Shown here in pieces: positions 5,936 to 10,732 of a DNA stretch of 10,732 nt. The stretch spans positions 1 to 10,732 of the forward strand of contig JAZDHP010000054.1 in NCBI GenBank assembly GCA_043805855.1, written 5' to 3'. A model generated the notes under the pieces. That model saw only the letters and a list, made by a program, of their open reading frames with translations. It made no database searches and had not been told where the DNA came from. A program made the position numbers and the translations under genes. Each line of letters opens with the position of its first letter. Position 1 is the first letter of the stretch. This stretch comes from Candidatus Micrarchaeota archaeon. GTDB taxonomy: Archaea; Micrarchaeota; Micrarchaeia; Norongarragalinales; UBA8480.

Positions 5936-6841
5936 ATGGATATGATTAAAATGCAACTTGTTGATGAAAATAAAGCAATGCCTTGTGTTCGCGTTGAGCA
6001 AAACGCCTTTTCGGCACTTTCTGTAGAGCGGGTGAAGATTTTGCAGTTCATTGCATGTGAGCCAACTTATCCTGCTGAAATTAGCCGCGAGCTTGGTTTA
6101 CAGGTGCAAACCGTTTACTATCATGTTCGCGAATTGCAACGCGCTGGGTTAATTGTTCCAGCTGGCATGGAGGAAAAAGGCGGCGCAATGGCAAAGAAGT
6201 TTACCGTTGCCGGCAACGCGCTTGCAGTTATTTTGAAAGACGATTGGGTGCCGTTCGCACAAAAGTCTACAAAAATCCCGTCGCTCTTGTCGCCATTTGT
6301 GAAAAACGGTTTGTTTGACGGTTATTTTGTTCTAGGTTCGCCTGATCCGCATGGTAAATACCGCTCGCGGGCAAGTGAATTCTGCGCGTGTGAATTGTCG
6401 ATGTTTCTTGGCAGTAGTTGCTCGTTTTCATTTCCTCTCTACCTTTTAGACACTGAATTGCGCGAGCAGCAAAAAAAGAAAAACCTAGTGTTGTTCGGCG
6501 GGCCAAAAGTAAATTCTCTCGTTGCCGAGGTGAATAGTTATTTGCCTATTAAATTCGACGAGAAAACGTTTGACGTTTACAGTTCAGTTTCCAAAAAAAG
6601 ATTTGCAGAAACAGTTGGGTTAGTTGAGGTTATTGACAACCCGTTTGCTCATGGAAAGAAATTGTTGTTCGTCGGTGGGATGAACCACTTAAGCACTCGC
6701 GCTGCTGTGCTTGCCGTTGTAAGTAAATGGAAGGAAATTGAAAAGGGAAATTCGTTTGATTCTAAAGTAATTGCGCGCGTTGTCGAGGGTTTCGACGAAG
6801 ACGGCGATGGAATAATTGACAGCGTGGAATTTCTCGAATGA
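5936..6841 (+). CDS. ArsR-like winged-HTH transcriptional regulator fused to a C-terminal alpha/beta domain (S-layer C-terminal-like NLVLFGGPKVN motif) ending in a DxDxDG loop
   Basis: RVKILQFIACEPTYPAEISRELGLQVQTVYYHVRELQRAGLI is a classic ArsR/HTH_20-type wHTH. The C-terminal region has VLGSPDPHG, NLVLFGGPKVN and DEDGDGIIDSVEF. The start could also be 5942 or 5951. Confidence 0.85.
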   Translation: MDMIKMQLVDENKAMPCVRVEQNAFSALSVERVKILQFIACEPTYPAEISRELGLQVQTVYYHVRELQRAGLIVPAGMEEKGGAMAKKFTVAGNALAVILKDDWVPFAQKSTKIPSLLSPFVKNGLFDGYFVLGSPDPHGKYRSRASEFCACELSMFLGSSCSFSFPLYLLDTELREQQKKKNLVLFGGPKVNSLVAEVNSYLPIKFDEKTFDVYSSVSKKRFAETVGLVEVIDNPFAHGKKLLFVGGMNHLSTRAAVLAVVSKWKEIEKGNSFDSKVIARVVEGFDEDGDGIIDSVEFLE

Positions 6842-6876
6842 GTTAAAAATACAGGAGTTGCAATTGATTTATGCGT
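6813..6876 (+). repeat. 64-bp direct repeat, copy 1 (3' end of the regulator gene, intergenic region and start of paralogue 1)
   Basis: TAATTGACAGCGTGGAATTTCTCGAATGAGTTAAAAATACAGGAGTTGCAATTGATTTATGCGT aligns without gaps to 8091-8154, 53/64 identical by hand count. Confidence 0.9.
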
Positions 6877-8097
6877 GAAGAGTTGTGGAAAAAAATAGGT
6901 AACGTTTCTTTAGACGAAGCTATTGGGTTAGTTGTAAGAAACCGTACGCGTTACGGTAGGTTAGTTGCAAGTCAATCTCCTTTGAGAGAAGCTCGGGAAA
7001 GTGCCGCGAATAAAGCGGTGTTGCAAGAGCATTTAGCTGCAGTTGAAAGACAATTAGAACGAACAGGTGAACGAAGTGGTGATGTAAACGCCGCTCAGAA
7101 ACTTGCTGCGCTTAGCCACCAGCGTGAAATTTTAACCGCTATGATGGAGTACGGTAATCGTAAGTTACACGCTACTGAACTTGCAGCTGCGCTTGTCTTA
7201 ACGCATGGCTTGGAAGAAAAGAAATTGCGCCCAGTTTTCAACGCCGCTATATGCTTATCGAGAAGGGCAAATCCTCCTTTTTCAGGTAAATTAAATCACG
7301 TGGTTGCCCGTGGGCTTAAGGGCAATGTATTTCAACAGGTTCACGACGCGTTGGAATCGCGGCCAGGTTATTACGCTACTGCGGTTGACTTGGCGCGGGA
7401 ATTGAAAGTCAAGCCAGTTGCAGTTGAAATTGCTTCTGGAGTTTTAGACTTAGCCGGCGTCGTGCATAAATTACCTACTGATTCTAGAAAAAGTTCTTTT
7501 GTCTGGATGCACGCGAGTGGAACGCCGCCTGAGCCAACTTGGAATGGATTATATACGGTTCTGCTTGCTCTCTCTAGGTCTCCAGTTCCATTGAATATAA
7601 CTGACTTGGCGGAAAGTGAACATAATTCTCTATTTTTATCTACCCGTGCTATTGGGTTGTTGTTGTCAAAAGCTCAACGTGAAGGATTAGTCGATGTAGT
7701 AGCAGGAGCTTACCGTAAGAGACACGGGGTTTTTTTACCGTTCTTTATTAAATCTACTATCAAGGAAGCAATTTTAGAAACTCACAATTCTGGAAAGTTA
7801 ATCGAATCACTCCGGCCAGTTTTACTGGGAAGTTTTGAACCGGATCGTGTAAAAGTAAGCCAAGTTCAAGAAACTAGGCTGGTTAAATATGTTCAATTTT
7901 TAATGGCGATGGCAGTCGGGTCGCCGCAAATTAGCGCGGTTGCTGAGCGAATCGGGCTAAACACAACAACTGCGTATAATTACGCTCGCGGCGGTGTGCC
8001 AGTTCATTTTAAACAACTTGGCTTCTCTGGCACAGCTACTTTACTTGAAAAACTTGGCAAAAGAGAAGAAGCTGAGTTTATCCGTCGACGTAATTGA
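6871..8097 (+). CDS. Uncharacterised multi-HTH protein, tandem paralogue 1 of 3 (408 aa)
   Basis: Long ORF homologous to 8149..9432 and 9435..end (LDEAI.L....RTRYGR.V.SQSP, QREIL.AM...G.RKLHATE, LDL.G.VHKLP.DS, W.HASG.PPEPTWN). HTH-like segments are ATAVDLARELKVKPVAVEIASGVLDLAGVV, LNITDLA...LLSKAQREGLV and ISAVAERIGLNTTTAYNYARG. Confidence 0.8.
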   Translation: MREELWKKIGNVSLDEAIGLVVRNRTRYGRLVASQSPLREARESAANKAVLQEHLAAVERQLERTGERSGDVNAAQKLAALSHQREILTAMMEYGNRKLHATELAAALVLTHGLEEKKLRPVFNAAICLSRRANPPFSGKLNHVVARGLKGNVFQQVHDALESRPGYYATAVDLARELKVKPVAVEIASGVLDLAGVVHKLPTDSRKSSFVWMHASGTPPEPTWNGLYTVLLALSRSPVPLNITDLAESEHNSLFLSTRAIGLLLSKAQREGLVDVVAGAYRKRHGVFLPFFIKSTIKEAILETHNSGKLIESLRPVLLGSFEPDRVKVSQVQETRLVKYVQFLMAMAVGSPQISAVAERIGLNTTTAYNYARGGVPVHFKQLGFSGTATLLEKLGKREEAEFIRRRN

Positions 8098-8154
8098 CTG
8101 TGTTGAATTCCTCGAATGAATTAAAAGCGCAAGGGTTGCAATTGTTTTATGCGT
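8091..8154 (+). repeat. 64-bp direct repeat, copy 2 (contains the stop of paralogue 1, a fossil of the regulator C-terminus and the start of paralogue 2)
   Basis: TAATTGACTGTGTTGAATTCCTCGAATGAATTAAAAGCGCAAGGGTTGCAATTGTTTTATGCGT. In the regulator's frame it still reads I-D-C-V-E-F-L-E-stop, versus I-D-S-V-E-F-L-E-stop in copy 1. Confidence 0.9.
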
Positions 8155-9432
8155 CGTCCTTCTAATCGTGTTGAATTGTGGAGAAAGATGGGCCACGTTA
8201 CGTTGGATGAAGCGATTGGACTAATTTTAAAACATCGCACTCGCTATGGCCGTATGGTTTCTTCGCAATCTCCTGCTAGAGAAGCTGCTGAAAGTGAAGC
8301 TAATAGACGTGTTTTGGAAGAGCAGTTAGCAAAACTTGAAAAACAACAGGCTAATCCAACTAGGGCTCCGGGGCAAACTGCTGACGCGGCGCTGCGTCAA
8401 TTGCTGTGTCAGCGTGAGATTTTAACAGCAATGCAAAAGTACGGTGATCGTAAACTTCATGCTACTGAAATTGGTGCTGCTTTAGTTTTGGCGCATGGTC
8501 TTGATGAAAGAGATTTACGGCCACATTTTAATGCTTTGATTAGTCTTGAGCGTGCTACGTTAAGCCCGCCTTTTTCCGGAAGCGCAACTGATTCTGCAAA
8601 GGCAATCCGCGGTAATTTATTAAAAAAAGTGCACGATGATTTGTTTACTAGTGGTAGTTATGCTTCTGCAGTTGATTTAGCTAGAAAATTTGACACTGAT
8701 GCAAATGGTTTAGTGCGGGTTACACCTTTGCTCGACTTAGCGGGGCTAGTTCACAAATTGCCAACTGATTCAAACACAAAAGCTTATGTTTGGATGCATG
8801 CAAGTGGAGCGCCGCCAGAACCAACCTGGAATTATGCTTATTTGCTTTTGAAGAACTTATTAACAACAAACCGCCGGTTAACTGTTCAAGAAATTGCTAA
8901 GCAAACTGAACATATTTTGTCCACTAGTCATAATACTAAAGGCGCGCTTCGTTTTGAGTTAGGTCGTAGGATATTAGCGAAATTACAAGTGGTTGGATTA
9001 GTTAAATCCGTAGGTGAAGGAACAAAAGCAACTTTCTATGCAACTGCTCTTGCTGGTAAACTTATTTCGCGAACAGTTAGCTCAGGTACGTTGCATCCGG
9101 AACTTAATCGCGCACTTTTGGGAGCTTTTGAAGTAGATAAGCCAGTAATTACGCCGCATCGCGAGAAACAATTGTTGAACGAAATAGCAGTGCGTGTTTA
9201 TGTAGATGCGCATCCGAGTGCAACAGTTACTGAAGTCATTCAAAGAACACGGGTTAAGGAAAATCGTGAAACTATTCGAGCACACATGCGAGGCGAACAG
9301 TCGCGTTTTAACCATTTTCCAATTCACACTTTGCTAGCGGTTGCAGATCATTTTGATAAGAAAGGTTTGGTAGACGCTGCTAATTTTATTCGCGATAAAC
9401 ATTTGCGTCCAGATTTTAGAGAGGTTAAATGA
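8149..9432 (+). CDS. Uncharacterised multi-HTH protein, tandem paralogue 2 of 3 (427 aa)
   Basis: Same conserved blocks as paralogues 1 and 3. HTH-like segments are ASAVDLARKFDTDANGLVRVTPLLDLAGLV, LTVQEIAK...RRILAKLQVVGLV and ATVTEVIQRTRVKENRETIRAHMRG. Confidence 0.8.
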   Translation: MRRPSNRVELWRKMGHVTLDEAIGLILKHRTRYGRMVSSQSPAREAAESEANRRVLEEQLAKLEKQQANPTRAPGQTADAALRQLLCQREILTAMQKYGDRKLHATEIGAALVLAHGLDERDLRPHFNALISLERATLSPPFSGSATDSAKAIRGNLLKKVHDDLFTSGSYASAVDLARKFDTDANGLVRVTPLLDLAGLVHKLPTDSNTKAYVWMHASGAPPEPTWNYAYLLLKNLLTTNRRLTVQEIAKQTEHILSTSHNTKGALRFELGRRILAKLQVVGLVKSVGEGTKATFYATALAGKLISRTVSSGTLHPELNRALLGAFEVDKPVITPHREKQLLNEIAVRVYVDAHPSATVTEVIQRTRVKENRETIRAHMRGEQSRFNHFPIHTLLAVADHFDKKGLVDAANFIRDKHLRPDFREVK

Positions 9433-9434
9433 TT

Positions 9435-10732
9435 ATGACTTCACCGCGTAGAGTTGAAATGTGGGAAAAATTAGGCACTGTCCCGCTAGATGAAGCGATT
9501 GACTTAGTTGTAAAGAATAGAACGCGTTACGGTAGGCGGGTTTATTCACAGTCTCCCGAAAGGCAAGCTGCTGCAGGAGTAGCTAACTCTCAAATTTATC
9601 AACGGCACTTAGCGGCAATTGAAAAACAAGTAGAAAAGTTAACTCAAAAACCGCCCTCGCGGTTAGTTTCTACTAGAATTGTGCGGTTACAACACCAGCG
9701 TGAAATTTTAAACGCAATGATGAAGCACGGCGACCGTAAACTTCACGCTACTGAACTTGCCGCAGCTTTAGTTTTAACCCATGGGCTAAAAGATGTAGAT
9801 TTGCGTCCGCGGTTCAATGCAGCGGTCAGGTTAGGGCGTTTAACTAACCCTCCTTTTGAAGGAAGTTTTTCAAGCGTTTGCCATGCGCTTGGAGAGCGAG
9901 GAAGTCGAAACGAAAGTGCGCTTGAAAAAGTTCACGATTTACTTCTCGATCGATCTGTCCCAATTTCTGGAAATATACTAGCTGGTCAGTTTGATATTAG
10001 CACACGCGATTTTGCACGGGTATCTGGAGTTTTAGACTTAACCGGGACAGTTCACAAGTTACCGATGGATTCATTATCTAAGTCTTTTATGTGGATACAC
10101 GCGAGTGGAACACCGCCGGAACCAACTTGGAATATTGATTATAGGGTTTTGAAATTACTTGCAAATGCCAATAGGGGATTGCACAGGCAGGCGTTGCTTG
10201 CTAAACTAATTAGTGAACCGCACGTTGCTAGAGTGCCTGGTTCAGGTTCTCTTGAAAGTTCCCTTGTTTTACGCGCCACAAATAGATTAGAACAAAGTGG
10301 ACTCATTGAAATAAAAGGCAAGTCTAAATTTAATCCGCGGTTAGTTGCTAGGCCGGTCGCAGTTAAATGGATTTGGAGAACGCAAAAAACTGGCAAATTG
10401 GTACCAGATTTAAGAGACGTGTTATTAGGTGAATATAAACAAAGGCCGCCAGTTTCCGAAAGGAGACTACAGCGAATTATTAAGGAAATGCAATTGCGAA
10501 TAGCTAGAGAGCAAAACCTGGAAGAAAAGTATCCTACTTTGCTTAAGCGAACAGGGCTAGATATAGCGGGACAAACTGCTTGGGCGTATTTAGAACGCGG
10601 CAATTCAACTTTAACCACGACCGGGTTGCCTGTAATTAGAAAAATAGCAGATTACCTTGAAAGAAACGAACACCAAGAAGAAGCTGACTTTATTCGAAGG
10701 CACTATTTGAACCGCGAGACGGAATCAACTTA
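9435..10732 (+). CDS. Uncharacterised multi-HTH protein, tandem paralogue 3 of 3 (about 432 aa; absent from the ORF track because the stop falls at or after the window edge)
   Basis: Translated by hand from ATG 9435 (GAGGT SD at 9421-9425; an in-frame alternative ATG at 9429 overlaps the TGA of paralogue 2). Sequence: MTSPRRVEMWEKLGTVPLDEAIDLVVKNRTRYGRRVYSQSP...QREILNAMMKHGDRKLHATELAAALVLTHGL...LDLTGTVHKLPMDS...WIHASGTPPEPTWN...EEADFIRRHYLNRETEST. No stop in 432 codons. The window ends in TA, probably the first two bases of TAA or TAG. Confidence 0.85.
   Translation, partial: MTSPRRVEMWEKLGTVPLDEAIDLVVKNRTRYGRRVYSQSPERQAAAGVANSQIYQRHLAAIEKQVEKLTQKPPSRLVSTRIVRLQHQREILNAMMKHGDRKLHATELAAALVLTHGLKDVDLRPRFNAAVRLGRLTNPPFEGSFSSVCHALGERGSRNESALEKVHDLLLDRSVPISGNILAGQFDISTRDFARVSGVLDLTGTVHKLPMDSLSKSFMWIHASGTPPEPTWNIDYRVLKLLANANRGLHRQALLAKLISEPHVARVPGSGSLESSLVLRATNRLEQSGLIEIKGKSKFNPRLVARPVAVKWIWRTQKTGKLVPDLRDVLLGEYKQRPPVSERRLQRIIKEMQLRIAREQNLEEKYPTLLKRTGLDIAGQTAWAYLERGNSTLTTTGLPVIRKIADYLERNEHQEEADFIRRHYLNRETEST

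Follow-up and report, generated by a model that had tools for sequence, protein, structure and literature searches.

A tandem array of paralogous proteins with predicted winged helices in a Micrarchaeota genome: candidate lineage-specific DNA-binding regulators

The stretch of DNA analysed here (the window) is an entire contig of 10,732 bases (C54) from the 1.03-Mb genome of a Candidatus Micrarchaeota archaeon (G000; 67 contigs, 92% complete), and its downstream part holds a tandem array of genes for P0001, P0002 and P0003, paralogous proteins of slightly more than 400 amino acids (aa). A first-pass annotation had described at least three co-oriented, neighbouring genes of one paralogous set at this place, and the open reading frames (ORFs), a three-way alignment and tblastn comparisons all agree with that description (Table 1). 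Pairwise tblastn between the array proteins gave E = 1e-66 to 1e-82, far past chance, and in the alignment the other two proteins are 44% and 42% identical to P0001; taken together, the three paralogues are 39-42% identical. The shared blocks quoted earlier were all recovered as invariant columns: W.K.G.V.LDEAI.L, RTRYGR.V.SQSP.R, QREIL.AM, RKLHATE..AALVL.HGL, LRP.FNA, PPF.G, VHD, LDL.G.VHKLP.DS, W.HASG.PPEPTWN, LLG and FIR. The genes are closely packed, with 51 nucleotides (nt) between genes 1 and 2 and a 4-nt overlap of the P0003 start with the P0002 stop, and the gene for a 301-aa protein ends 29 nt before gene 1.

The third gene, which the first-pass annotation had placed at about 432 aa, does exist and is slightly longer than that. 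The window ends in the letters ACT TA, whereas the contig of a relative about 90% identical, from a groundwater run, reads ACC TAG there, with a loose end behind position 10729. Because this relative has its TAG stop exactly at the window end, we take P0003 to be almost certainly complete. The count of at least three paralogues stands for the array, and a fourth copy can be added to it: P0005 (408 aa), whose gene on a separate contig (C66) is flanked by genes for an RFC small subunit and for Pelota. Searches of the G000 assembly gave four matches, and beyond these four copies no further copy or fragment was found in it.

Table 1. Coordinates of the array genes, the predicted parts of P0002, the upstream element and the upstream gene in the window
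Feature	Position	Strand	Remarks
Paralogue 1 (P0001)	6871-8097	+	ORF, 408 aa
Paralogue 2 (P0002)	8149-9432	+	ORF, 427 aa; protein used for modelling
Paralogue 3 (P0003)	9429-10732	+	434 aa; ORF 9429-10730 open at contig end; stop codon straddles contig end
Short helix of the LDEAI block, then conserved flexible arm RTRYGRxVxSQSPxR	8149-8295	+	P0002 residues 1-49
Helical hairpin and three helices, single bundle	8296-8604	+	P0002 residues 50-152
First winged helix	8605-8811	+	P0002 residues 153-221, predicted structure
Second winged helix, MarR/ArsR/PadR-like	8812-9093	+	P0002 residues 222-315, predicted structure
C-terminal helical region with three-helix helix-turn-helix (HTH) at about 343-381	9154-9408	+	P0002 residues 336-420
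Conserved upstream element, copy 1	6815-6873	+	before paralogue 1
Conserved upstream element, copy 2	8093-8151	+	before paralogue 2
Upstream gene	5936-6841	+	301 aa; N-terminal ArsR/HTH_20-type winged helix and C-terminal S_layer_C-matching domain; outside the paralogue family

The earlier statement that the family is not a recognised one also holds. None of the three array proteins reaches the curated cut-off of a Pfam or NCBIfam family, and PADLOC and PHROGs gave no match for any of the four paralogues. Sub-threshold Pfam scores were 16.8 bits against a cut-off of 22 for HTH_IclR, 13.3-13.7 against 27 for MarR_2 and 13.9 against 21.9 for HTH_24, and no enzymatic or catalytic domain was found in the paralogues at the Pfam and NCBIfam cut-offs. 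A sequence profile search of the PDB returned nothing significant (best match a designed tetratricopeptide repeat protein, E 0.025), the best ESM Atlas feature score for P0002 was 0.78, which has the level of a lead only, and a search of literature listings surfaced no account of such a family.

Relatives are few. A word-index search of 5.8 billion clusters returned five proteins, two of them the window's own, and an exhaustive profile search of 1.84 billion representatives returned 110 at E ≤ 1e-3, 64 at E ≤ 1e-10 and 13 at E ≤ 1e-30. We looked up 20 representatives, six of which carried an organism name (two Micrarchaeota, two Diapherotrites, one Altiarchaeota and one 'archaeon'); a further Micrarchaeota name stood among the word-index matches, and a related-locus search with a six-sequence alignment found a single genome locus, in a Micrarchaeota metagenome-assembled genome. 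As to the taxonomic range, which the first-pass annotation had proposed to establish, the family is rare, has no name and has so far been seen only in DPANN archaea, all named relatives being DPANN or an unclassified archaeon. The family profile matches 79 of 401 sampled genomes of the phylum at E ≤ 1e-5; the matches cover more than about 140 profile positions in 11 of them (G000, G010, G324, G173, G400, G020, G026, G040, G347, G216 and G353), and in the remaining 68 they comprise one generic winged helix at profile positions ~231-351. With four copies G000 has the highest copy number among the sampled genomes. Several relatives depart from the common layout: in G026 two short members of 286 and 325 aa stand in tandem (L048, contig C73, 1763-3512) and lack the N-terminal arm and the C-terminal HTH, in G353 (L050, contig C19, 337-1528) the family gene is split into two adjacent ORFs, and in P0028 and P0035, which are labelled Altiarchaeota and are ~560 aa long, the C-terminal module seems, by eye, to be doubled, with a G-x-x-P-W motif occurring twice.

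We scanned 72 of the 110 relatives against Pfam, and 54 of the 72 had no match at E ≤ 0.001. Five others (P0040, P0056, P0064, P0072 and P0083; 623-640 aa) carry Sigma70_r2 and/or Sigma70_r4 domains C-terminal to the family module. The homology of P0040 to the family is seen pairwise, with E 7e-08 over 262 residues to P0002 and E 3e-17 to the member in G324. P0001-P0003 themselves have no Sigma70 match in Pfam at E ≤ 0.1.

The first-pass annotation had read each protein as an N-terminal scaffold followed by two winged-HTH units and a third HTH. An AlphaFold2 model of P0002 (mean predicted local distance difference test score, pLDDT, 78; predicted template modelling score, pTM, 0.67) and a separate model of its residues 1-152 (pLDDT 85, pTM 0.80) largely agree with this reading, with two winged helices and a C-terminal HTH, and the fold that defines a winged helix, a three-helix bundle followed by a beta-hairpin wing, is present in the P0002 model. 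In the first winged helix the recognition helix and the wing (LDL.G.VHKLP.DS...W.H) are conserved among the paralogues, and the second is their most variable domain. The C-terminal region is modelled with helices at 336-354, 360-367 and 373-380 and closes with the conserved A.FIR block. Its HTH assignment is supported by an HTH_23 match in the relative P0078 (1e-07; 32 bits, with the cut-off at 24.6), which together with the sub-threshold HTH_IclR matches of P0013 and P0001 maps to P0002 residues 343-381 and 359-380. What had been called a scaffold is, according to the models, itself a helical bundle of DNA-binding type behind a conserved flexible arm. The bundle carries the QREIL, RKLHATE..AALVL.HGL and LRP.FNA blocks. 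Arm residues 30-48 have pLDDT values of 44-51; R32 of the arm is in one of just seven columns conserved at 90% or more among 66 family members, and R-x-G-[RK]-x-[VIC] occurs within the first 120 residues of 52 of the 110 family representatives.

These parts recall known proteins to different degrees. The second winged helix of P0002 resembles those of the MarR, ArsR-SmtB and PadR regulators. The array proteins differ from these in scoring below the gathering scores of MarR (PF01047/PF12802) and ArsR (PF01022/PF12840), in being three to four times longer, in having two winged helices and two further helical DNA-binding-type modules per chain, and in lacking a recognisable dimerisation or ligand domain. 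With the whole P0002 model as query, the top Foldseek rows were RPC62, TFIIIC, ESCRT-II and SelB, all chains of winged helices, and none reached E ≤ 0.001; the best were human RPC62 (2xv4, E 4.6e-03, probability 0.93; 7ast_X, E 5.8e-03). The likeness to RPC62/RPC82, TFIIIC, ESCRT-II and the SelB C-terminus lies in a linear winged-helix chain with a helical hairpin. These chains appear to differ from the array proteins in the number and order of their domains and to have no counterpart of the N-terminal arm and bundle, and the comparison shows no sequence similarity, with template modelling (TM) scores of 0.13-0.22 and E > 0.001. The bundle at about residues 53-152 bears a weak likeness to the N-terminal core-binding (SAM-like) domains of XerD, lambda Int, XerA, Cre and other tyrosine recombinases. 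Domains of this type accounted for ~16 of the top 50 rows obtained with the model of residues 1-152, in alignments of 85-100 residues with a root-mean-square deviation of 3.1-3.6 Å. Unlike a recombinase, P0002 has no Phage_integrase match (Pfam, E ≤ 0.1), and its residues 153-427 form winged helices and the HTH instead.

Conservation is unevenly spread along the four G000 copies. Mean pairwise identity is 0.59 in the N-terminal arm and in the third-helix part of the bundle, 0.39 in the helical hairpin and 0.43 in the first winged helix, and it falls to 0.24 in the second winged helix and 0.26 in the C-terminal HTH. Among the paralogues the N-terminal half is thus constant, and variation is concentrated in the second winged helix and the C-terminal HTH. 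In a tree one clade (support 99/98) unites P0004 with the four copies of G000, and within it P0004 is sister to P0003 (97/95). Because the terminal branches measure ~0.9 changes per site, the duplications are old, and all four copies are intact.

The array was also followed in a related groundwater population (run X1), from which Logan contigs were placed at 80% likeness. All three array genes are covered in this run. One contig of 4176 nt joins position 6903, among the opening codons of gene 1, to 8197 in gene 2 and skips 1293 bases, exactly gene 1, at a depth of 8.8 compared with ~3.6 for the body of gene 1; it may reflect copy-number variation by recombination between paralogues, or assembly collapse.

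A 59-nt element precedes genes 1 and 2. Copy 1 runs through the closing codons of the 301-aa gene with its stop, the AT-rich TTAAAAAT, GGAG and GTTGCAATTG to the ATG of paralogue 1, and copy 2 holds a non-coding remnant of the 3' end and stop region of the 301-aa gene. The two copies are identical at 48 of 59 nt (81%), whereas the nucleotide identity of genes 1 and 2 over their coding sequences is 51%, and CTCGAATGANTTAAAA occurs at two sites in the whole genome, both in the element copies. The remnant in copy 2 suggests that the duplicated unit brought its upstream region along, and this region appears to have been kept after the duplication. We also considered GTTGCAATTG and TTGCAATTG as over-represented binding-site words and dropped them as a composition effect. 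The genome contains 46 and 209 occurrences, respectively; because 188 of the 209 TTGCAATTG sites lie inside crude coding sequences and their number is near the maximal-order Markov expectation of 218, we rejected this word as a lead.

We give about an even chance to the reading that the paralogues are lineage-specific, sequence-specific DNA-binding gene regulators with a common N-terminal half and paralogue-specific recognition heads. Each chain would combine a flexible arginine-glycine arm, a bundle like the core-binding domain of recombinases, two winged helices and a C-terminal HTH. The conserved N-terminal half (arm, bundle and first winged helix) would do a job common to all copies, either contact with a shared partner or recognition of a shared DNA feature, and the fast-diverging second winged helix and C-terminal HTH would give each paralogue its own target sites. 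The 59-nt element shared by genes 1 and 2 offers a candidate site for common control or autoregulation. This reading is supported by the lack of a catalytic domain, by basic isoelectric points (9.9-10.3, in the top ~17% of the proteome), by the split in conservation, by the old and intact copies, by the 81% identity of the upstream element and by the sigma-fused relatives, whose Sigma70_r2/r4 domains are promoter-reading modules. Of the functions that the first-pass annotation had offered, transcription factors stand as the best guess. What the analysis shows is the genes and their paralogy, the rarity and taxonomic labels of the family, the predicted folds, the conservation pattern and the absence of conserved neighbours; that the proteins bind DNA, that they regulate genes and that their two halves share out the work is inferred.

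Several points weigh against regulators of this kind. Winged helices also mediate protein-protein and RNA contacts, as in ESCRT-II, RPC62, SelB and Roquin, which are among the Foldseek rows, and the isoelectric points exceed the proteome norm (median 9.0) only modestly. Classical MarR/ArsR regulators are dimers of ~100-150 residues, and we know of no precedent among characterised regulators for a monomeric four-module layout. The conserved upstream element could be a leftover of duplication or gene conversion and is not necessarily an operator.

The same set of modules might instead serve chromosome structure: the paralogues could be architectural proteins of the nucleoid, or proteins for chromosome organisation or segregation, whose several heads would bind DNA with little specificity, with kite-type tandem winged-helix subunits or centromere-binding proteins as possible analogues. 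We consider this unlikely. Several DNA-binding modules on one basic chain would suit such a role, and replication genes are found close to two family loci (RFC on C66, RFC with Cdc6 in G010). RFC-type ATPases are the only recurring neighbours in our scan of 10 family loci with 54 flanking ORFs, but both of these loci come from one taxonomic family and may represent plain shared synteny. No SMC, kleisin or ParA-type partner was found among the 54 ORFs, which sets the family apart from the Kite subunits ScpB, MukE and JetB. A distribution as patchy as long matches in 11 of 401 genomes would be odd for a core chromatin protein, and four diverged paralogues with variable recognition domains suit specificity better than bulk binding.

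The sigma-fused relatives raise the question of a role in transcription initiation. In this case the paralogues would be accessory factors for initiation or promoter selectivity, with a body of several winged helices docked on the archaeal transcription machinery or on the organism's sigma-like proteins, and each paralogue would steer transcription to one promoter class, like RPC62/TFE-type or sigma factors; we regard this as quite improbable. Its boldest form, in which the paralogues are DPANN-specific promoter-selectivity factors whose N-terminal half docks on the transcription machinery or sigma-like partners and whose variable half reads promoter classes, is more doubtful still. If it were true, the four paralogues and the fusions to sigma regions 2 and 4 would mark an undescribed hybrid of archaeal and bacterial promoter recognition. 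The initiation-factor reading draws on the five fusions, on the conserved N-terminal half, as expected of a shared docking surface, and on the RPC62 and TFIIIC rows at the top of the full-model search; the RPC62 rows, however, have a TM score of 0.14 and E > 0.001, as expected for any winged-helix chain. G000 also encodes, separately, nine sigma-like ORFs of 164-378 aa, found by an iterative search from four seeds with Sigma70 r2/r4 matches: four in tandem at 143-3605 of contig C7, two on C31 and one each on C15, C65 and C29. Each has a conserved N-terminal head ahead of its sigma part. In agreement with these nine ORFs, PMC8204110 reports sigma-70 genes in DPANN (family fam00359), and it gives their control as not known. 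The likeness of the present family to these proteins lies in the five distant members with C-terminal Sigma70 r2/r4; the array proteins differ in having no sigma domain, and the family profile does not match the sigma-like proteins of G000.

The link between the family and sigma proteins is loose, because co-occurrence is partial, the sigma ORFs of relatives bear other N-terminal regions, and there is no profile match to the heads of the G000 sigma-like proteins. Of the 11 genomes that match the family over a long stretch, 4 have sigma region 2, as do 45 of the ~390 others, a comparison between incomplete and mutually related genomes. We rejected the idea that the long ORFs with sigma domains in relatives are fusions of family members, since 0 of 27 ORFs (at least 250 aa, 10 sigma-bearing loci) matched the family at E ≤ 1e-3 and the best whole-sequence E value was 0.032 with filters off; in Micrarchaeota, sigma domains are fused to many unrelated N-terminal regions. 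A head common to the family and the G000 sigma-like proteins was rejected as well (hhalign probability 0.3). A metagenome scan for the source of the sigma-fused forms found none, a word-index query with the sigma portion of P0040 returned P0040 itself only, and the ESM Atlas gave sigma-factor clusters only for this protein. In passing we observed at five Micrarchaeota loci (L061, L062, L065, L068 and L070) sigma-bearing ORFs of 567-787 aa with repeated N-terminal modules of ~60 residues ending in an HGG-type motif, which are unrelated to the family of the array.

A role in genetic conflict, with the paralogues as parts of a mobile element, of a defence system or of a repertoire for host interaction, so that their rapid evolution and patchy spread would follow from that conflict, is very improbable. 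Patchy distribution and local tandem expansion would be consistent with it, as would the hint of a copy-number difference from the contig that skips gene 1 and weak BFVD rows to Pyrobaculum spherical virus proteins (E 2.6e-03 and 1.1e-02), the BFVD search having given weak rows only. Against this stand the old duplications and the lack of any PADLOC or PHROGs match, and no relatives were found in viral contigs, phage records or plasmid records. The genes flanking the family at the 10 loci are housekeeping genes (YchF, Cdc6, RFC, RadA, FtsZ, aminoacyl-tRNA synthetases, NifU/cysteine desulfurase and malic enzyme), the sole mobile gene among them being one of IS605 OrfB type at a single locus. 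The guanine-plus-cytosine content of the array (0.43) compares with 0.41 for the genome, and no signal peptide or enzymatic domain was noticed in the paralogues. The earlier suggestion of specificity subunits or of effectors acting on host or viral DNA has nothing in its support from these searches. Nor did the locus prove to be an undescribed system, for which it had been named the best candidate: the genes stand alone amid housekeeping genes, with no conserved partner over the 10 loci. Binding of RNA or of non-B-form nucleic acid, with winged helices used as in SelB, Roquin and Z-alpha, has the slimmest chance of all, because the SelB WH2-4 and Roquin ROQ domains among the Foldseek rows are set against a MarR/ArsR-like domain and sigma fusions that point to DNA, and because, of the Z-alpha hallmark (recognition-helix Asn and Tyr, Asn173 and Tyr177, and a wing with Pro-Pro-x-Trp), the positions that match the Asn173 and Tyr177 contacts do not, by eye, seem to be conserved in the family.

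The transcription unit of the array probably begins with the 301-aa gene immediately before it. The product of this gene pairs an ArsR/HTH_20 winged helix (Pfam HTH_20, 6.5e-09) with a C-terminal domain that matches the outer domain of Methanococcus-type S-layer proteins (S_layer_C, PF05124, 4e-10; TIGR01564, 1.6e-06), which is an unusual combination, and the gene does not lie beside family members at the other nine loci examined. Beyond it the window holds glmS, a GlmU-like gene, two GIDE-domain genes and LemA, as well as the end of a gene for a class II aminoacyl-tRNA synthetase. The LemA gene (1.4e-49) is followed on the minus strand, within 664-2832, by the two GIDE-domain genes, which are tandem paralogues (PF12483, 8e-10 and 2e-07) and form a second small tandem duplication on the contig.

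Returning to the regulator reading, the array most likely represents a known kind of protein in a new family and a new architecture, and a novel type of system is not the likelier view. The genomes of DPANN archaea are very small, and few regulators can be recognised in them. That a genome of 1.03 Mb spends four genes of ~1.25 kb on this one family suggests that the family matters to the cell. It constitutes a defined set of candidate DNA-binding proteins with a constant and a variable half, and it connects naturally with the sigma-like genes of DPANN, which are so far unexplained. Should the paralogues be ordinary repressors or activators, the outcome would hardly go beyond a useful annotation for a new winged-helix architecture; if they act in promoter selection, they would bear on how transcription is organised in reduced archaea.

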